The notes beneath the pieces are model-generated. The model was not told the origin of the DNA and made no database searches. It saw only the letters and a list, made by a program, of their open reading frames with translations. Of a stretch of 64,000 nt of DNA, positions 56,272-64,000 are shown piece after piece; positions within the stretch are counted from its first letter, which is position 1; every line of letters begins with the position of its first letter. A program made the position numbers and the translations under genes. Source of the stretch: an uncultured Clostridia bacterium (lineage in GTDB: Bacteria; Bacillota; Clostridia; TANB77; CAG-508); the NCBI GenBank assembly GCA_944387445.1, contig CALXEX010000004.1:689-64688 (forward strand). The letters are read 5' to 3'.

Positions 56272-56392
56272 CAAGAGACAAAAACAAATGGAAAATATTT
56301 TAAGCATAAAGTAAAAATGTTTTATAAATAGAAATCAAATTATATATTGATAAAAACCTGTGAAAATAGCAATTTTTTACAGGTTTCAAATG

Positions 56393-56421
56393 TTGACATA
56401 AAATAAGAAATGTGATAAAAT
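56393..56421 (+). promoter_or_regulatory. sigma-A-type promoter of the six-gene operon
   Basis: TTGACA, 17 nt, then TAAAAT. A 7-bp inverted repeat GTTGCAA/TTGCAAC lies in the leader (56443-56470). Confidence 0.6.
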
Positions 56422-56507
56422 TTACACGAATTTTTGCATAAAGTTGCAAAGAGTGTATCTTAATTGCAACAAAAAAATCTAATAATAATTTTGAAAGGAG
56501 AAAACAG

Positions 56508-58133
56508 ATGAACACACAAAGTATAGTAAGGTTAGGAGACTATATTCGGGCAGGATATCCGGCTATTGTTTTAAACACTCCTGAAGAAGAACGGGCTCTG
56601 GAAGAATGTTATAAAATAGCAGAAGGATTAGAACTGCAGTTTTATGCATGGTCTGAAACCAAGGGGGTTTTCAAATGTGAAAGAGATAAATGCGATGGAA
56701 ACCTTAAATATGAAACTGTAAAAGAGAGTGTAGCACCTGATGAAGAAGCTTTGAATGAGGGCTTAACGTATGGTAAAAACACCATATATTGTATGTTGGA
56801 TTTCCATCCATATATTAAAGCTCCAAATGTATGGAGAACAGCCAAAGATGTTTTTGCAAAAGCAAAAGGAAAAGGGACGAGTTACATTTTTATAAGTTGT
56901 AAATTTGATGTCCCGGCAGAACTGGAACATGAAGTAATCATAACGAGTTTAGACTTACCTCAAAAAAAAGAGTTACAAGAAATTGTAAATCAATTTTGTA
57001 AAATGTACGGAATTAGAGTTCCAGAAAATTTGGATGAAGTCTTAGATGCGGCCTTAGGTCTCACAATAGCAGAAGCTACGAATGCATATGCAACTTCACT
57101 GTCAAATACGGAAGGATTTGATGTAGACATTATAAACAATGTCAAAAGACAAATCATTTGTAAAGATGGCTTGTTGGAGTATATGCAGCCCAAAGAAACA
57201 ATGGAAACCGTGGGCGGAATGAAAAATTTTACAAGTTATGCGGAAAATCGGCTTTCTGCATATTCTGAAGAAGCAAGAGCTTATGGTTTACCTTATCCGA
57301 AGGGCGTACTACTTGTAGGAATTCCCGGATGTGGAAAAAGTTTGGCAGCTAAGGCACTTTCAAATATGTGGAAAAAACCTTTGCTGAAGCTGGATTTAGG
57401 AAAATTGTTTGGTTCTTTAGTAGGTGATACAGAAGCCAACACAAGAAAAGCCTTAGAAATAGCAGAAGCAATGGCACCGGCCATTTTATGGATAGATGAA
57501 ATCGAGAAAGGCCTCTCCGGAGTTGGAAGTAGCGGAAAGACAGATTCTGGTGTTACTTCTAGAATGTTTGGAACCATTCTTACATGGCTCCAGGAGAAAG
57601 AAACACCGGTCTATGTAATTGCCACTGCTAACAATATTTCTTCATTACCACCGGAGTTTTTGCGCAAAGGTAGGTTTGATGAAATCTTTTTTGTGGACTT
57701 ACCAAGTGGTGAAGAAAGAGAAGAAATCTTTGAAATTCAGTTGAAAAAGTATGGCAGAAAAAGTGAAGATTTTGATATTGCGGAATTAGCGAAGTTGTCT
57801 GAAGGATATACCGGAGCAGAAATTGAAGAAGCTATTGTTTCTGCAATGTTTAATGCATGGAATGATGGAAAAAGACCATTAACAACAGATGACATTAAAA
57901 CGGTGATGTCTGAAGAAATTAAGCCGATGTCTACAGGTATTATGAGTGGTACTGTTCAAGCATTAAGAGAATGGAGTTCCACTCATGGAATTAGAAGTGC
58001 TTCTTCTATTCCGAAAGTAAAGAAAGCGGCAACTTCAACAGGAAATATAAAAAGTACGAGACAAATAAGATTTAAAAAGCAGACTAATGGAAAAGCAGGC
58101 GGTACAGAGCAAACAAATAAGGAGGAATCATAA
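56508..58133 (+). CDS. AAA+ ATPase, classic clade, Ycf46-like architecture (unassigned N-domain of roughly 250 aa plus one AAA module and a basic tail)
   Basis: Walker A GIPGCGKS, Walker B ILWIDEIEK, sensor-1 ATANN, Arg-finger region RKGRFDE. Confidence 0.85.
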   Translation: MNTQSIVRLGDYIRAGYPAIVLNTPEEERALEECYKIAEGLELQFYAWSETKGVFKCERDKCDGNLKYETVKESVAPDEEALNEGLTYGKNTIYCMLDFHPYIKAPNVWRTAKDVFAKAKGKGTSYIFISCKFDVPAELEHEVIITSLDLPQKKELQEIVNQFCKMYGIRVPENLDEVLDAALGLTIAEATNAYATSLSNTEGFDVDIINNVKRQIICKDGLLEYMQPKETMETVGGMKNFTSYAENRLSAYSEEARAYGLPYPKGVLLVGIPGCGKSLAAKALSNMWKKPLLKLDLGKLFGSLVGDTEANTRKALEIAEAMAPAILWIDEIEKGLSGVGSSGKTDSGVTSRMFGTILTWLQEKETPVYVIATANNISSLPPEFLRKGRFDEIFFVDLPSGEEREEIFEIQLKKYGRKSEDFDIAELAKLSEGYTGAEIEEAIVSAMFNAWNDGKRPLTTDDIKTVMSEEIKPMSTGIMSGTVQALREWSSTHGIRSASSIPKVKKAATSTGNIKSTRQIRFKKQTNGKAGGTEQTNKEES

Positions 58134-58690
58134 TGAGTCACTTTTCAACAGTAAAAACGGAAATAACAGATTTGGAAGCTTTGGAGAAAGCAGTTTCTAG
58201 CATGGGGTTGAGATTGGAATCCAATACAACGTGCCGGTATTATTACGGAGCCGAATTCAAGGAACATGTTATAAAACTTCCTGGACGGTATGATGTTGCC
58301 GTGGAATCTAAAGGCAATGGTACCTATGATTTAAATGCCGATTTTTATGGAGGACATGTTGAAAAAGTCATTGGACCTAAAGGCGATGTACTTCTGAAAC
58401 AATATGCCATTGAAAAGTTGAAAATCGAAGCAAAAAAACATGGGTATAAGGTCTATGATAAAGGAAACGGAAGTTTAAAAATCATGGATCCGAAAACGAC
58501 CGGGAAGGCTGAAGTGACATGTTTACCTGATGGAAAGTTCGAAATAAAAACTTCAGGTTTCAAAGGCAAGTCTTGCATGAAGTTTGAAGCAATCGAAAAA
58601 GCCTTAGGATGTATTGACAGCACAAAGAAAACTGCTGAATACTATGCTGGTGATAATACGGCCAAAGCGCGTCTTACAGAATGGAGTTAA
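58133..58690 (+). CDS. DUF1257 (Ycf35-like) plus DUF2997-like fusion protein
   Basis: The N-terminus MSHFSTVKTEITDLEALEKA matches my memory of the DUF1257 start. The C-terminus GFKGKSCMKFEAIEKALG matches the DUF2997 core. The ATG overlaps the AAA+ stop (TAATG). Confidence 0.65.
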   Translation: MSHFSTVKTEITDLEALEKAVSSMGLRLESNTTCRYYYGAEFKEHVIKLPGRYDVAVESKGNGTYDLNADFYGGHVEKVIGPKGDVLLKQYAIEKLKIEAKKHGYKVYDKGNGSLKIMDPKTTGKAEVTCLPDGKFEIKTSGFKGKSCMKFEAIEKALGCIDSTKKTAEYYAGDNTAKARLTEWS

Positions 58691-58694
58691 TAGC

Positions 58695-60077
58695 ATGAAA
58701 AAAATAGCCATTATTATGTGTAATGATATGCATATGGACATAGAACGGTCCAATGTCTTACTAAATTACATTGTACAAAATGGTAATTATGAAATTGTCT
58801 GTGATTATACAATTGCAGATATTGTCATTATTCAAACTTGTGCTTTTGGAAATGGTAAAAGATATAGTATGCAAGTCATTGCAGATGTAAGAGTAAATGC
58901 CAATCCAAATGCCAAAATCATCGTAACGGGGTGTTTATTACCAATTAACAAAGAGGAATTAAAAGTGATTCCTGGAATAGAAGTAAAAAGCTTTGATGAA
59001 CTAATTCTTATGTTCAAAAAAGCAGATATACATCTATATCAGGAAATCGTTCCTCAAAATAAGGTGATTATCTCAGAAGGATGTTTAAAAAGATGTTCTT
59101 ATTGTGTATATCCCTTAATTGCTGGCAAATACACTAGTAAGCCAATGGGTGATATTTTGTCAGAAGTTGCAAGATTATATGAGACGGAAACAAATATCTA
59201 TTTAACAGGGGCACAAGAAACATCAGATTATGGCAGAGATTTATATGGCGAACCGAGTTTTGCGAAGTTGTTACAAAAAATTTGTACACAATTTCCGAAT
59301 TGTAACTATATCATTGGCTGGTTTCATCCGGCAGGGTTAACAGAAGAAATGATTTCTGTGATAGCACAAAATAAAAATATCATAGAAATTATGCTTCATA
59401 TCCAGCATGTGGATGAAACAATTCTTAAAAATATGAATCGACCCACAATGAAATTTACAGATGAGAAGATTCAGAAATTAAGAAAATTACGGCCAGATTT
59501 GGCTATTTCAACTGAAGTGATAGTTGGGTTTCCTAGAGAAACCCAACTGGAATTTCAAAAATTAGTGAAGTATTTAAGTAAAGGATATTTCACTGATATA
59601 GGAGTAGCAAGTTATGAACAGGTTTTGGGTACCGACGCTTCTGTGATGGAAAATCAAATTCCAGAAGGCATAAAAAAACAAAGACTACAATTCATCCAGA
59701 CGAAATTTAAAGCTTGTATTTATCCAGGCAATAAGGATAATTTTACGATGTCAGTTATTGAGGAATATATGAAAGCATATGATTTATTTTGTCAACTGCC
59801 TAAGTATATTTTGAATAACAGACAAAAATATAATTGTATTGCTGGGGTAGATACGAAGGCTAAAACGGAAGAGTTGGAAGAAATTTTAAAAGAAGTTCTG
59901 GAATATATTATAAATTCCAGAGGTGAATTTGATTTTCAAAAGAATAAAAAAATTCTAACTGAAAAATATACAGCAGATGCGAGAATGCTATTTTGTAGTA
60001 TGATAGAAAGAGGGAATTTCAAAGAAGGAATAAAGCAAAGAGCAAAAAAATTGTTATTAGATGACAACCAAGATTAA
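58695..60077 (+). CDS. methylthiotransferase-like radical SAM enzyme (MiaB/RimO family fold) without a recognisable TRAM domain
   Basis: MTTase N-domain Cys triad (IIMCND, QTCAF, TGCLL) and radical SAM CLKRCSYC. The ATG at 58695 is 8 nt after GGAG. The track start at 58614 overlaps the upstream gene. Confidence 0.75.
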   Translation: MKKIAIIMCNDMHMDIERSNVLLNYIVQNGNYEIVCDYTIADIVIIQTCAFGNGKRYSMQVIADVRVNANPNAKIIVTGCLLPINKEELKVIPGIEVKSFDELILMFKKADIHLYQEIVPQNKVIISEGCLKRCSYCVYPLIAGKYTSKPMGDILSEVARLYETETNIYLTGAQETSDYGRDLYGEPSFAKLLQKICTQFPNCNYIIGWFHPAGLTEEMISVIAQNKNIIEIMLHIQHVDETILKNMNRPTMKFTDEKIQKLRKLRPDLAISTEVIVGFPRETQLEFQKLVKYLSKGYFTDIGVASYEQVLGTDASVMENQIPEGIKKQRLQFIQTKFKACIYPGNKDNFTMSVIEEYMKAYDLFCQLPKYILNNRQKYNCIAGVDTKAKTEELEEILKEVLEYIINSRGEFDFQKNKKILTEKYTADARMLFCSMIERGNFKEGIKQRAKKLLLDDNQD

Positions 60078-60095
60078 ATTTATGAAAGGAGTAGT

Positions 60096-60758
60096 ATGAA
60101 AATTCAGCGTGTTATTCGTTTTAAAAGAGAGCCTTTAAATAAAGGTGATCCAAAAGAACGGGAAGAAGCTATCCGTGTAAATCACGATGCTTCAGAAAAT
60201 ATACAACAAGAAGAATGCAGACCATCTCCAAAATTAAAGCTTCCAAAAGAATTTAATGATGCAAATATGCAACTAAGAACATGTATCAGATTAGCTTTCG
60301 AAGAAAGAAACAAGGAAAATCTATTTGGAGTATTTGGACCCGATGCAGAAAGAATGATAAACGAATTAAAGAGAGATGTGATCGATAGACGTGATTGTAT
60401 TGTTAGCTTAACATATTCTTCAGAGTTTGGAAGTATAAAGAGTTATGAGGAATTATGTGACTATATTGCAAGAGGATTGCAACAGATGTCTGGAGAAGAA
60501 TTTATAGAAGGATACACATCTGAAAAAATCATTTCAGAGATTATAGATTTATACAAAATTGGGTTAGTTGATATGTGGAGTAGGCCACAAAAAGTTTTCA
60601 TTCTAATCAATTTCGAGATTATGAATCTTGAGATTTTGAGAAAACTTTCAAGTCTACAATCTTCAGATTTGATTATTCTTGTATGGTCTAACGAGACCAG
60701 AGATGGTATAGAAGATTTCTTCTATGATGGAAACTTTATTTTTGCAAATTTAACATAA
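60096..60758 (+). CDS. hypothetical protein, paralog A of the next gene
   Basis: AAAGGAG RBS. Shares MKI(Q/E)RVIRF, GVFG, L(R/K)(K/R)LS.LQSS(D/E)LII and GNFI blocks with the 60781 ORF. Confidence 0.6.
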   Translation: MKIQRVIRFKREPLNKGDPKEREEAIRVNHDASENIQQEECRPSPKLKLPKEFNDANMQLRTCIRLAFEERNKENLFGVFGPDAERMINELKRDVIDRRDCIVSLTYSSEFGSIKSYEELCDYIARGLQQMSGEEFIEGYTSEKIISEIIDLYKIGLVDMWSRPQKVFILINFEIMNLEILRKLSSLQSSDLIILVWSNETRDGIEDFFYDGNFIFANLT

Positions 60759-60780
60759 TATTTCAGAAAGGAAAAAAAGT

Positions 60781-61599
60781 ATGAAAATTGAGCGTGTTAT
60801 TCGGTTTCAAAAACCTCAAAATACAGAGGATGTTAATGAAGCCGTCAGAAAAGTAGAAAGCACAGGCATTGGTTTTCGGACTTTAGAAGATGTGCAATCA
60901 AGAGGTGGCATACCTGATGGAGAATTTCATTCCCAAGTAGTGATGGAAAAATCAGGCCCGAGTGCTTTTGACCAGTTAAAACGGAGAATGGAAATTGTTT
61001 TGGCTGGGAGAGCTTCCAATATGATTGGCGTTTTTGGGATAAATGCAGACAATGTGATTGGACAAATGATGAAAGATCCGATTTTCCAGAATGTTAATTT
61101 TTTGGGTAAAATAGAACAATCGCCTGGAAGTGATATTTATAATTATATTGCAGCAATTTTAATGGACTATCTTAACCAAAAAGTAGGTGGAAGGCGTGAT
61201 TTGGAGTATGAAAGGAGAGAGGCTTTTAGAACAATTGAAACTATTTATGATTCTCATGAAACTCATGGTACAGCATTAGATGTTTTACATCAGACTGCAA
61301 TGAAAGCCAAAAGGGATAGTTATATTTTAACTGCCCTCAATCAAATTAATAGAATAGATAATTATGTATCTTATTCAAGAGAAAGAGAGTATAAATTTCT
61401 GTTAATTGTGGAATTACAAAAAGTGGATTATGTGACACTTAAAAGGCTTTCAAATTTGCAATCCTCAGAGTTAATTATCATTACATATTCTTTATTTAAA
61501 TTAGAATATGCGCTGGATAGTGAAACAATGGGGAGCATAGGAGGTAATAATATCATAGGAAAGTTTTTCCCTGCTGGTAACTTTATTATGGCAGATTGA
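60781..61599 (+). CDS. hypothetical protein, paralog B
   Basis: Same conserved blocks as paralog A. 272 aa. Confidence 0.6.
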   Translation: MKIERVIRFQKPQNTEDVNEAVRKVESTGIGFRTLEDVQSRGGIPDGEFHSQVVMEKSGPSAFDQLKRRMEIVLAGRASNMIGVFGINADNVIGQMMKDPIFQNVNFLGKIEQSPGSDIYNYIAAILMDYLNQKVGGRRDLEYERREAFRTIETIYDSHETHGTALDVLHQTAMKAKRDSYILTALNQINRIDNYVSYSREREYKFLLIVELQKVDYVTLKRLSNLQSSELIIITYSLFKLEYALDSETMGSIGGNNIIGKFFPAGNFIMAD

Positions 61600-61620
61600 T
61601 AAAGATAGGAGGGATTTACA

Positions 61621-62910
61621 ATGATTTATATTGACCTTGATGAACATAAGATTTACCGTAAGTCTTATCAGGATTCTGATAGTGCTTCTTATTCAGGAAC
61701 TGGTTTCTTTCTAGAATCTGCAAAACTAATTATTGATAAAATGTTCGAAGAATATTTCATGGAATTTTATCAAGAAAACGCCATGAAGTCACAGATGACT
61801 GAAATCTGGAAACAAATATCAATAAACATTCCTGAGGAAACAGTATTTGTGGTAAAAAATGCACAACAGTATTATTTAACTGAAGATTTGCATTTTGAAA
61901 CTATACCAGAAGTATTTTTTGAAATTAGTAATACTGCCCACATTGTTTTGGCAGAATGTTTTGAGACATGCTATTCAAGATTTACTGACTGGATGGGAAA
62001 CTATAAAGACTGGAAACAGAAAGAAATCAACTTGCCTACTATATATATAAGTGAAAGAAAGCATCCAGACGTAGGAGGAGTAGAAGGCTTCTTTGAGGAT
62101 GAAAAAGTAAGGTTTGAGCGTATTTTAAATGTCTCTTTGAAGCCAAAAATGATTGATTCTGTAAGCCCAAAGATTATGGAACTCTATAGAAGTGAAATCT
62201 TGGATAACGAACCAATTATGCTTATCATTAAAACGGATGGGGACACTAGAGAAATCTATAGTGTTTCGAACGAATTAATGGTTAAAAAAGTTCAGTATCT
62301 TCATATGGAAAGGCAATTACAGGAAATCATTAGTAGACATGTGCCAGTAGACTCTGATTTTCTGGCAAATAGGCTGTATAATTATATTTGGATGCCGTCA
62401 AAGTGGATAAAGCCATATATCAGAATAGAAACAGTTAATAAGAATGGCATAAATGCTACATTATTTATAACTGATAGGCAAATTCCTATTGTTTCCGATT
62501 TAGAGTTTAAGAAAGTTTATACATTTGCATTGATTGAACATAATGCAAATGTATATCCAAATTCTCCCTATAGTATGTGTGGAGATTTTATCAGTATTCA
62601 ACCGGTTTCTCCTGAAGAGGGATTACGGGAGATGCAAGAAATGAATGAAACGATGTTTCAGGATATGACTTGTTATGTAGAATATGTAGGGAAAAAATAT
62701 AGGATTCATGGAATGGATCCCGATACTTGTAAAGAGGGAACATGGGATGAGGAAGATAGTTTGGTGTATGAACTGAAACAAGGCGAGTTGAGTTTGATGG
62801 AAAGCTTGACTCTTGAGGCTATAAAGGATGGTTGGTCTAGGATAAAAGAGGTGGCTAGAAAAGCACGAAAAGAAGGCGTCTATGCATTCTTCAAAGTTGA
62901 ATTTTTCTAA
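61621..62910 (+). CDS. hypothetical 429-aa protein
   Basis: TAGGAGGG RBS. No recognisable domain. Last gene before the terminator. Confidence 0.6.
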   Translation: MIYIDLDEHKIYRKSYQDSDSASYSGTGFFLESAKLIIDKMFEEYFMEFYQENAMKSQMTEIWKQISINIPEETVFVVKNAQQYYLTEDLHFETIPEVFFEISNTAHIVLAECFETCYSRFTDWMGNYKDWKQKEINLPTIYISERKHPDVGGVEGFFEDEKVRFERILNVSLKPKMIDSVSPKIMELYRSEILDNEPIMLIIKTDGDTREIYSVSNELMVKKVQYLHMERQLQEIISRHVPVDSDFLANRLYNYIWMPSKWIKPYIRIETVNKNGINATLFITDRQIPIVSDLEFKKVYTFALIEHNANVYPNSPYSMCGDFISIQPVSPEEGLREMQEMNETMFQDMTCYVEYVGKKYRIHGMDPDTCKEGTWDEEDSLVYELKQGELSLMESLTLEAIKDGWSRIKEVARKARKEGVYAFFKVEFF

Positions 62911-62911
62911 C

Positions 62912-62956
62912 AAAAAAGATTTAAAGGTCGCAATTAGCGACCTTTAAATCTTTTTT
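62912..62956. terminator. strong bidirectional terminator closing the operon
   Basis: A6-gatttaaaggtcgc-aatta-gcgacctttaaatc-T6. Confidence 0.85.
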
Positions 62957-62957
62957 G

Positions 62958-62986
62958 TTGAAGAAATTATGTAAATATGGTATAAT
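62958..62986 (+). promoter_or_regulatory. promoter of the terminal radical SAM gene
   Basis: TTGAAG, 17 nt, then TGgTATAAT (extended -10). Confidence 0.5.
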
Positions 62987-63097
62987 ACAGAAGATACATA
63001 TAAACTATGTTTAAGAAATTTAATTTGAGTTATTTTAACTTTAAAAAATTCTTAAACAAATGCACATTGAAAAACAAATATATGGAGGAGGAAAACG

Positions 63098-64000
63098 ATG
63101 AAAAATCAAAGTGCATCAACTTATTTAGAGAGTATTAGTGGAGTACTTAGCACTACACTCAATCCGGAAGGACCAGGAGCAGTTCGCATTCATTTGGTTC
63201 CTGCAAGGAAAGGAAAACGTAATCAACCAGCAATGGTGGTTCTCAATGGATGGAGAATCATTACATTAAAATCTGCTTGGGCTATACTCCTTGCTATTTT
63301 TATTCGCAAGGTAAATAAGCACGCAGGCAATGAGGTAACGGAAATCGATTTGAGCAAAATTGTTGAGGAGACTGCTGATGAGATGCATCAGATTTTTCCT
63401 CGTCATTTCAAGTTCAGATTCAAACGGGACCTTAAAGAAATGCTTGGCACAATGATTGCCATAGCTAAAGGAGAGAAAGTCAAAGGAAATATCGGCATGT
63501 CAATTGATGATTATGCAGATAGAATGGCTGGACCTCTTAGAATGGATCTTATGATAAGTGCCATGAAAAAATCCGGGCATTGGAACTGTAATCAAAAATG
63601 TGTCTATTGCTATGCAGCAGGGCAGTCACAGGCAGAAGTGCCGGAGCTTTCTACAGCTGAATGGATCGAGATCATTGACAAACTGTGGAATGAGGCTTAT
63701 GTTTCTCAAATCACTTTTACTGGTGGAGAACCTACCAGAAGAGATGATCTTGTAGATCTGATTAACCATTCAAAACAGTTTGTAACTCGCTTGAATACAA
63801 ACGGACTTGCACTTGAGGACGAAGTTCTTTGTCAAAGACTTTATGATGCTTGTCTGGATTCTGTGCAGGTTACGTTGTATTCTTCTGATCCGGAAATTCA
63901 CAATCGTTTGGTAGGTATTTCGAATGGTTTCGAAAGAACGGTTCAGGGAATCAAAAATGCCCTGGAGATAGGGTTAAATGTGAGTATCAATACTCCCATT
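63098..64000 (+). CDS. radical SAM protein with an approximately 160-aa N-terminal extension; 3' end outside the window (not in the ORF track)
   Basis: My translation from the ATG at 63098 (after GGAGGAGG) gives MKNQSASTYLES...HWNCNQKCVYCYAAGQS (Cx3Cx2C), ITFTGGEPT and RLNTNG. The frame is open to nt 64000. Confidence 0.75.
   Translation, partial: MKNQSASTYLESISGVLSTTLNPEGPGAVRIHLVPARKGKRNQPAMVVLNGWRIITLKSAWAILLAIFIRKVNKHAGNEVTEIDLSKIVEETADEMHQIFPRHFKFRFKRDLKEMLGTMIAIAKGEKVKGNIGMSIDDYADRMAGPLRMDLMISAMKKSGHWNCNQKCVYCYAAGQSQAEVPELSTAEWIEIIDKLWNEAYVSQITFTGGEPTRRDDLVDLINHSKQFVTRLNTNGLALEDEVLCQRLYDACLDSVQVTLYSSDPEIHNRLVGISNGFERTVQGIKNALEIGLNVSINTPI

Follow-up and report, generated by a model that had tools for sequence, protein, structure and literature searches.

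Cyanobacteria, algal plastids and many phages have conserved versions of the AAA+ ATPase Ycf46 and of the DUF1257 protein Ycf35, and the literature searched gave no biochemical function for these or for the DUF2997 proteins linked to them. What such proteins do is the question raised by a six-gene locus (positions 56508-62910, forward strand) in a 64,000-nucleotide stretch of DNA from an uncultured Clostridia bacterium (contig CALXEX010000004.1 of assembly GCA_944387445.1; the whole stretch is called the window below, and positions are counted from its first nucleotide). The locus encodes a Ycf46-like ATPase (g1), a DUF1257-DUF2997 fusion (g2), a RimO-like methylthiotransferase (MTTase, g3), two predicted pseudo-ATPases (g4 and g5) and an orphan protein (g6). 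Comparison with related loci showed that g1, g2 and g3 are conserved as a trio, that the accessory genes vary as cassettes, and that the tail of the ATPase and the termini of unrelated accessory proteins share a short motif. These data suggest, with a probability that we put at about 40%, that the core is a machine recruiting tagged clients for ATP-driven remodelling, possibly with RimO-like methylthiolation. An enzyme partner and recognisably tagged candidate clients make the Ycf46/Ycf35 question experimentally approachable.

One genome per species was scanned with g3 and with alignments of g2 and g3. The g1-g2-g3 trio was found in the same order in about 30 species-level uncultured Clostridia of the gut and rumen (human, mouse, deer and other guts), as well as in further metagenome contigs, so the linkage of the ATPase and both DUFs to an MTTase, first proposed from the window alone, is a conserved one. 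The order was interrupted only at contig ends and in a few copies that are decayed or orphaned (L043, L103:6950-8329 and L124:8998-10047): one consists of a g3 homologue alone, with no g1 or g2 and with Cys49 replaced by Ser, and the remaining copies consist of truncated g3 with fragments of accessory genes, which suggest occasional loss of the system. Outside Clostridia, the MTTase was missing where g1-like ATPases adjoined DUF1257 and DUF2997: such loci were seen in Verrucomicrobia, Bdellovibrionota, a deltaproteobacterium and many cyanobacteria, and also in Rhizobium phage RHph_I4, which encodes all three. Since these relatives lack the MTTase, its link to the trio is best read as a Clostridial elaboration of a wider module. 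Searches of IMG/VR viral contigs, including those that used family-specific patterns, detected no copy of the MTTase system, and MTTase matches in the phage collection were confined to the core at 26-32% identity; a phage or prophage origin was therefore rejected. The flanking genes varied by locus and were of housekeeping type (asparagine synthase, Dxr, SufCD, LepA and AddAB; glycoside hydrolases in the window), with synteny partly retained among related species. The gene-neighbourhood comparison that the original prediction had proposed thus bore out the co-occurrence of the trio, with homologues of g4 to g6 varying by locus, and gave no sign of the defence islands that it had raised.

The g1 product (56508..58133, 541 amino acids) matched Pfam AAA (PF00004, 4.7e-28) and AAA_lid_3 (PF17862). 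Walker A (GIPGCGKS, 57318-57341), Walker B (ILWIDEIEK, 57483-57509), sensor-1 (ATANN, 57621-57635), the Arg-finger region (RKGRFDE, 57663-57683) and the lid were all present, as expected of the classic-clade AAA+ ATPase that had been predicted. The best PDB matches were the D2 modules of p97/Cdc48 (1e-52), and phrog_8638 matched nearly the full length (residues 13-505, E 1.7e-126). The DUF1257-adjacent ATPases of cyanobacteria, Verrucomicrobia and Bdellovibrionota were 35-46% identical to g1 over residues ~5-500. The N-terminal domain (~1-235), which the original prediction left unassigned, aligned to the lid/sensor-2 region of g1 itself (hhalign 69%, E 4.5e-5), so that g1 is probably a tandem of one inactive, degenerate AAA unit and one active unit. 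The C-terminal tail, which had been called basic and probably disordered, is of low complexity and contains a conserved R-x-[IVM] motif that had been overlooked (here TRQIRF, residues 517-522, 58056..58073).

Both domains that had been named in g2 (58133..58690, 185 amino acids) scored above their Pfam cut-offs: DUF2997 (PF11211) at 37.4 bits against 24.1, and DUF1257 (PF06868) marginally, at 23.7 bits against 22.2. PHROG matches were phrog_20456 and phrog_23133. Residues were compared across Clostridia, cyanobacteria, Verrucomicrobia, Bdellovibrionota and one phage. The DUF1257 domain (residues 1-110), which begins with an invariant MSHF in the family, kept M1, S2, H3, R35, G39, D54, D70 and Y91 throughout, with F4 and Y37 nearly so, and shares these residues with the cyanobacterial members. 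In the same set, the DUF2997 domain (residues ~125-175) kept a single Cys in a G..G..C motif, which is Cys148 of GFKGKSC (58556-58576) in g2. Sequence and profile searches of the PDB gave no solved structure for either domain.

The g3 product was taken as 460 amino acids (58695..60077), the start at which its homologues begin MKKIA; the mechanical list of open reading frames (ORFs) runs it back to a TTG at 58614. In agreement with the earlier reading, Pfam identified an MTTase N-terminal domain (UPF0004, PF00919, 37.4 bits against a cut-off of 27) and a Radical_SAM domain (PF04055, 55.7 bits) and gave no TRAM match (PF01938) at E<=0.1. The auxiliary-cluster cysteines are Cys9, Cys49 and Cys80 (58710-58727, 58833-58850 and 58926-58940), kept in most of the family and lost in divergent or orphan members P0127 and P0133 only, and the radical SAM motif CLKRCSYC (CxxxCxxC, 59082-59105) is invariant. 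RimO was both the best PDB match, in an alignment that stops at residue 332, and the highest-scoring equivalog model, with g3 below every NCBIfam cut-off (TIGR00089, 205.6 against 251; RimO, 201.1 against 357; MtaB, 165.2 against 357; MiaB, 141.1 against 355). The last ~120 residues form a conserved, family-specific domain (residues ~340-460) with an IAGVDT motif (59838-59855) and a basic C-terminal helix with RAKKLLL (60039-60059). The family comprises at least 174 clusters at 90% identity with E<=1e-40. No TRAM was found among the 120 clusters listed, which are mostly ~420-490 amino acids long with a few shorter and apparently truncated members; the two of them with source names read just 'radical SAM protein'. 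In published work, MTTases are defined by three domains, one of them TRAM, and fall into four clades (PMC2952846), which makes g3 an atypical member. The RimO/MiaB family shares the three-Cys UPF0004 domain and the CxxxCxxC site with g3 but has TRAM where g3 has its own C-terminal domain, and RimO/MiaB genes stand alone, whereas the g3 family is always linked to the AAA+ ATPase and DUF1257-DUF2997 apart from the few decayed or orphan copies. In loci L038/L123, L124 and L125, in which proteins of 170-190 amino acids are encoded between g2 and g3, g3 is ~370 amino acids long and lacks most of the C-terminal domain.

The genes around the trio are variable cassettes. In the type found in the window, one to three g5-like proteins were accompanied by g6; other types had a g5-like protein with three others, including a coiled-coil protein of ~420 amino acids; arrays of four to seven BspA-type leucine-rich repeat (LRR) paralogues (Pfam LRR_5, E 1e-64); the 170-190-amino-acid protein that sits between g2 and g3, in single copy or as a pair; a g5-like protein with two Zn-ribbon proteins; or another two small proteins. 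When the window was compared with its close relative L001, synonymous divergence (dS) was 0.012 in g1, 0.102 in g2, 0.060 in g3 and 0.027 in g4, and it rose more than 10-fold at the g4/g5 boundary, to 0.43 in g5 and 0.56 in g6. This jump indicates that the g5-g6 cassette was swapped by recombination. The ratio of nonsynonymous to synonymous divergence was also higher in g5-g6 (0.3-0.6) than in g1-g3 (0.1-0.2) in most comparisons, g4 (0.66) and g1 of L008 (0.41) being exceptions. Two contigs of the rumen metagenome-assembled genome (MAG) RUG770, L030 and L031, each carried a full LRR-type system, so that either the genome has two paralogous systems or the bin mixes strains.

As had been predicted, g4 (60096..60758, 220 amino acids) and g5 (60781..61599, 272 amino acids) are paralogues, with 29% identity and a common hidden Markov model (HMM) family in which g4 is the shorter member. 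The view that g4 to g6 have no recognisable domains held for g6 and, at the level of fold, not for this pair. In the AlphaFold2 model of g5, residues 1-58 were predicted to be disordered (predicted local distance difference test, pLDDT, <50) and the core to about residue 240 had a pLDDT of 67-92 except for one 10-residue block at 56. Foldseek returned RdrA, the ATPase of RADAR, as the top and sole significant match of this core (E 2e-6, probability 1.0); weaker matches (E 0.014-1.1) included MuB, NB-ARC, clamp-loader delta, PCH-2 and SAMD9. Degenerate Walker A motifs are present in g4 (GVFGPDAE, 60327-60350, in a P-loop domain behind an acidic linker) and g5 (GVFGINAD, 61027-61050), and g5 has a Walker-B-like FLLIVEL (61396-61419). 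The Walker A lysine is missing in every member, which marks the family as pseudo-ATPases. The models thus predict degenerate P-loop domains of STAND/RdrA-like type behind a disordered N-terminus.

The motif that joins core and cassettes is R-x-(I/V)-x-x, which is common to the ATPase tail and to the termini of at least six accessory families and takes the form RVIRF in the accessory proteins of the window. All 25 Clostridial g1 orthologues had R-x-[IVM] in their last 8-25 residues. g4 starts MKIQRVIRF (tag QRVIRF, 60105-60122) and g5 starts MKIERVIRF (tag ERVIRF, 60790-60807). The motif was N-terminal in the g5 family, in F10, in F11 and in the family of L101_4558 and L112_10384, both of which fall outside the g5 family; the N-terminal carriers include the coiled-coil protein, the 170-190-amino-acid family and another family. 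It was C-terminal in the LRR proteins, every paralogue of which ends FSGVIRxNLIAxKKK, and in the Zn-ribbon protein F28. Five of the families with the motif (g5, F10, F11/F16, F28 and the L034_4953 family) were pairwise unrelated by hhalign, which among the accessory families linked solely F11 with F16 and the Zn-ribbons of F28 and F29; the LRR family was placed by Pfam alone and left out of this comparison. A position-specific scoring matrix built from g1 tails only, with a score >=8 at a terminus counted as a hit, recovered 9/57 operon-accessory ORFs and 2/132 flanking ORFs (Fisher p = 4e-4), and one of the two flanking hits was an upstream g5 paralogue. Tails and tags differed together in some loci: L112 had the tail ARIKRA with accessory tags RRIKRA and TRIKRP, and L125 had RRIIPV with RQIIPI and RQIIPM. 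Conserved positions 0, +2 and +4, the terminal placement and the disordered N-terminus of g5 together fit a docking peptide.

Similar basic-aliphatic ends were seen on the ATPases of other lineages, namely RRVQS in Verrucomicrobia, KRVIELR in Bdellovibrionota, TRKVLV in a Streptococcus phage satellite and KVRVLDL in mycobacteriophage Corndog; the cyanobacterial Ycf46-like ATPases compared differ from g1 in having no basic R-x-I tail motif. In the satellite, Streptococcus satellite phage Javan368 (L019:3568-7548), the g1-like ATPase ending TRKVLV lies at the end of the satellite and is preceded by two proteins, with no Pfam domains found in either, whose C-termini NRKIKI and SIIRNHKI resemble the tail motif. 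In the cyanobacterial loci L060-L098, the DUF2997 proteins begin MAQQTIRFRIRPDGRVEE, and their first beta-strand TIRFRI resembles the RVIRF tag.

The recruitment reading arranges these parts as follows. The core would consist of the tandem ATPase g1 (inactive N-terminal module and active classic-clade module), g2 and g3; the clients would be g4 and g5 in the window, with g6 as an untagged partner, and elsewhere LRR arrays, coiled-coil, Zn-ribbon and other proteins. The motif would act as a docking tag, probably as a beta-strand read at positions 0, +2 and +4, which brings the clients and the ATPase's own tail to a putative common receptor in the core. The ATPase might then grip the adjacent disordered linker and remodel or unfold the client. 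RimO methylthiolates ribosomal protein S12 on an Asp residue and is, to our knowledge, the only MTTase clade with a known protein target. The likeness of g3 to RimO and its lack of an RNA-binding TRAM make a protein substrate plausible for it, and by analogy with RimO and S12 it may methylthiolate the client presented to it, or the tag itself or a residue close by. The variability of the LRR and inactive-STAND-like partners would point to sensing in a conflict or immunity setting. The original prediction had likewise suggested that an ATP-driven remodeller presents a protein, perhaps the products of g4 and g5, to the radical SAM enzyme; RVIRF on the termini of g4 and g5, its counterpart in the ATPase tail and the proximity of g3 to RimO lend this indirect support, but the occurrence of the motif in MTTase-less relatives does not. 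A fuller version, which we regard as unlikely, holds that the module at large is a tag-reading AAA+ machine, for which gut Clostridia recruited a fifth, TRAM-less clade of MTTases for tag-directed protein methylthiolation of interchangeable, sensor-like clients, possibly in immunity.

Several observations weigh against recruitment followed by remodelling and methylthiolation. At the pore-loop-1 position of g1, assigned by eye as S-L-V-G-D-T-E, there is a Leu where substrate-threading unfoldases typically have the aromatic residue of an aromatic-hydrophobic-Gly loop. Many hits of the scoring matrix belong to the g5 family and are hence not independent, and the locus-by-locus co-variation of tails and tags was weak (permutation p = 0.025) and confounded by shared ancestry. 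g6 and several accessory proteins carry no tag. With regard to methylthiolation, Ycf46-like ATPases of MTTase-less lineages and phages have the tail motif too, so the tag cannot be primarily an MTTase substrate motif and is older than the association with the MTTase. The invariant residues of the tag, Arg and Ile/Val, leave out the Asp that RimO modifies. A mimic of the S12 loop targeted by RimO was sought and rejected, since GGRVKDLP, scored with the tag matrix, ranked no higher than the top 1.8% of 8-mers; it was kept as a weak lead. A g3 without TRAM could also still use RNA if a partner supplies RNA binding.

An anti-phage or conflict function, which the original prediction had offered as its second hypothesis in the form of a horizontally acquired module and which we consider rather unlikely, would use the same parts differently: variable sensors would be tethered by their tags to the AAA+ ring, and on sensing the ATPase would release or activate the MTTase as an effector that modifies tRNA, rRNA or a ribosomal protein, of host or phage, and halts translation. 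Conflict systems typically show variable cassettes, arrays of paralogues and recombination, as seen here, and the cassettes encode LRR and inactive-STAND-like proteins; the top structural match of g5 is a defence ATPase, the g1 ATPase module resembles IetA, a tail-motif ATPase with neighbours of similar C-termini lies at the end of a phage satellite, and AAA+-centred systems with inactive STAND and radical SAM components have been described (PMC7159879). The surroundings of the loci speak against such a function, being housekeeping genes that are partly syntenic across species, and no copy of the MTTase system was found in IMG/VR viral contigs. The likeness to IetA/IteA is limited to the generic ATPase module (73 bits against a 510-bit cut-off), PADLOC matches of accessory proteins were just Control_protein (E 7.8e-4) and DruG (E 1.2e-4) at ~18-19 bits, and the system has no classic effector domain. 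In addition, lytic phages themselves carry the AAA+/DUF1257/DUF2997 trio.

In three distant lineages, among them Clostridia with the MTTase, the gene after the DUF pair encodes an Fe-S protein, so the core might instead service Fe-S or radical enzymes. The AAA+ ATPase with DUF1257 and DUF2997 would then maintain the adjoining enzyme by loading it, repairing its sacrificial auxiliary cluster, relaying sulfur through the invariant DUF2997 Cys or supplying electrons, with the MTTase as client and the tagged neighbours as substrates or regulators. A Bdellovibrionota locus encodes a 292-amino-acid radical-SAM-like protein with CxxxCxxC after the DUF pair, and in some cyanobacteria a ferredoxin-like gene takes this place, in a cluster published as 'duf2997-ycf35-fed7' (PMC4284462). 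DUF2997 has its one invariant Cys, and the invariant N-terminal Ser-His of DUF1257 with its Asp/Arg residues looks from the alignments like an active or metal-binding site. We judge this role improbable, as many trio loci (Verrucomicrobia, phages) have no adjoining Fe-S gene, the Bdellovibrionota case is one locus with a sub-threshold Pfam score, and neither the tag sharing between tail and accessories nor the turnover of the cassettes is explained. Still less credible is a role in cargo loading or targeting, in which the motif would be a sorting signal and the ATPase would load tagged proteins into a particle, a compartment or an export route, as do the Pvc15-type ATPases of extracellular contractile injection systems (eCIS) with their N-terminal packaging signals or the targeting peptides of encapsulins. 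The tags are indeed terminal peptides on disordered linkers of unrelated, cargo-like proteins, and one Bdellovibrionota trio is embedded in a contractile-tail-like cluster, which encodes a protein that by eye reads as sheath-like and has a sub-threshold match to the baseplate-hub family Phage_GPD (26.7 against 30.1 bits, E 4e-6). No shell, tail, membrane or secretion gene, however, was found beside any of the ~30 Clostridial loci, and the MTTase would be left without a role. A cluster for a ribosomally synthesised and post-translationally modified peptide (RiPP) with a radical SAM maturase was rejected, since the tagged proteins are folded and 170-460 amino acids long and the Pfam search gave no SPASM or RRE match in g3.

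Some arrangements of the DUF pair outside Clostridia were recorded in the course of these comparisons. In the Bdellovibrionota MAG (L053:6451-10513), the AAA+ ATPase, DUF1257 and DUF2997 are followed by the 292-amino-acid protein with CLLKCTTC, whose Radical_SAM match is sub-threshold (E 4.8e-4). In Synechococcus-type loci (L078, L080, L082, L084, L091 and L094), the order is a Ycf46-like ATPase and, further along, DUF2997, DUF1257 and a ferredoxin-like protein with CxxCxxCxxxCP, which parallels the Fe-S enzyme after the DUF pair of Clostridia. An RlmN-type radical SAM gene ~3.5 kb upstream of picocyanobacterial DUF2997-DUF1257 (L069, L071, L077, L079, L083, L090, L092, L093 and L098) was set aside as probable coincidence or lineage synteny, and Ahb-type haem enzymes near DUF1257 in L056 were judged probable coincidental neighbours. 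In that locus (L056:253-3608), DUF1257 and DUF2997 follow a ClpA/B-like ATPase of 770 amino acids that is not Ycf46-like; as identified by reading the sequence, this may be another pairing of the DUFs with an unfoldase.

Among known systems, the Ycf46/Ycf35/DUF2997 genes of cyanobacteria, plastids and phages have the same ATPase architecture (35-38% identity over nearly full length), the same DUF linkage and the same DUF invariants. In the locus, by contrast, the DUFs are fused, an MTTase follows and tagged cassettes are present. The AAA+-centred 'ternary' conflict systems of Kaur, Burroughs, Iyer and Aravind (2020; PMC7159879), which include inactive STAND NTPases and radical SAM or peptide components, match the locus in theme: a chaperone-type AAA+ whose N-terminal AAA copy is inactive, STAND-like partners that are catalytically dead, small, fast-diverging proteins that keep a common peptide at a terminus and, in some cases, radical SAM enzymes. 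The sets described there, however, do not contain this ATPase family, DUF1257/DUF2997 or MTTase-type radical SAM enzymes, the present hosts are unicellular gut Clostridia, and no MoxR AAA+ or vWA domain was found in the six operon proteins or the accessory proteins sampled. The fold of g5 resembles the ATPase core of RdrA in a likeness limited to the generic P-loop; g5 has no Walker A lysine, and neither a PADLOC match to RdrA or RdrB nor a deaminase domain was found among the six proteins, so that the RdrB deaminase of RADAR is missing. The likeness of g1 to IetA is confined in PADLOC to residues 253-503, a generic AAA module (NCBIfam IteA, 73 bits), and no protease domain like that of the serine protease IetS was found in any of the six proteins. 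A known defence system was thus rejected, PADLOC having given generic IetA/TRIP13 ATPase matches for g1 and none for g2-g6.

Short terminal peptides steer proteins to AAA+ ATPases in Vps4 with its MIT-MIM interaction, in proteasomal ATPase tails and in the packaging signals of eCIS Pvc15. By analogy, short peptides on flexible linkers may direct diverse proteins to the classic-clade ATPase of this locus, with the differences that the motif is unrelated in sequence, that it also occurs in the ATPase's own tail and that the locus encodes neither a partner protease nor ESCRT or a tail particle. The architecture thus echoes the known themes of tag-directed AAA+ recruitment and chaperone-centred variable systems, and its parts belong to known superfamilies, whereas the combination of AAA+, DUF1257-DUF2997 and MTTase is described in none of the libraries and papers searched. 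As the original prediction supposed, searches of PADLOC, NCBIfam and the literature gave no characterised system that matches it, and no paper found links DUF1257, DUF2997 or Ycf46 to an MTTase or to phage defence. If the fuller version of the recruitment reading is true, the locus would be the first handle on the function of Ycf46, Ycf35 (DUF1257) and DUF2997 and a new type of post-translational modification or signalling. If confirmed, a TRAM-less clade of at least 174 clusters wired to an unfoldase would mean a wider protein-modification chemistry, and the cassettes of LRR arrays and dead STAND-like proteins may mark an unrecognised conflict system in abundant uncultured gut Clostridia.

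The six co-oriented ORFs lie where the original prediction had placed them. g1 and g2 share one base (TAATG), the later gaps are 4, 18, 22 and 21 nt, and a GGAG-type Shine-Dalgarno sequence precedes each of the six genes, which supports one operon-like unit as far as the layout can tell. The GC content of the window was ~25-36% in 1-kb windows, mostly <30%, and somewhat higher in the operon (30-39%). The predicted promoter (sigma-70 type, TTGACA-17-(TG)TAAAAT with an extended -10 TG, 56393..56421) matched 11/12 positions and was the top, near-consensus promoter-like site of the region; it was kept in related loci L001, L002 and L008 and occurred in a variant form in L003. Promoter-like sites were no commoner than chance in the region-wide scan (39 found, 39.2 expected). 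Between the promoter and g1, in the 5' untranslated region (UTR), lies a perfect inverted repeat, GTTGCAA-N14-TTGCAAC (56443..56470), with a chance expectation of 0.02 per window. It was invariant in the close relatives L001, L002, L003 and L008, even beside diverged upstream DNA, and absent from more distant related loci; an operator and a leader hairpin are both candidate roles for it.

The strong terminator that had been proposed at the end of the operon (62912..62956, assigned to neither strand) has a perfect stem of ~20 bp between A- and T-runs. Its minimum free energy was -33.7 kcal/mol (z = -11.9 against 200 shuffles); folding recovered this hairpin, which a simple terminator scan overlooked. 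The A-run before and the U-run after the stem make termination possible in both directions. An Rfam search of the operon and its UTRs gave only sub-threshold hairpin matches, at the terminator.

The last gene of the operon, g6 (61621..62910, 429 amino acids), is a very rare orphan. No family was found for it in Pfam, NCBIfam, PADLOC or PHROG, and its one Pfam match, to PAZ, was sub-threshold (21 bits) and gave no assignment. Its AlphaFold2 model (pLDDT 69) gave no Foldseek match in the PDB or BFVD. Relatives amounted to 7 clusters at 90% identity among 5.8 billion proteins and, in an exhaustive HMM search of 1.84 billion representatives, 20 clusters at 50% identity; of the first 12 related loci examined, 8 have g6.

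Just 5' of the operon promoter, a hairpin CCTGTGAAAA...TTTTTTACAGG followed by T residues (56357-56384) probably ends transcription of the glycoside-hydrolase genes ahead of it and would insulate the operon from them. Past the terminator of the operon (62958-64000) lies a second radical SAM gene with a CNQKCVYC motif, whose product has 433 amino acids in matching contigs. None of the first 12 related loci examined has this gene beside the system, and it is therefore regarded as lying outside it. This gene has a promoter-like site of its own at 62958-62986.

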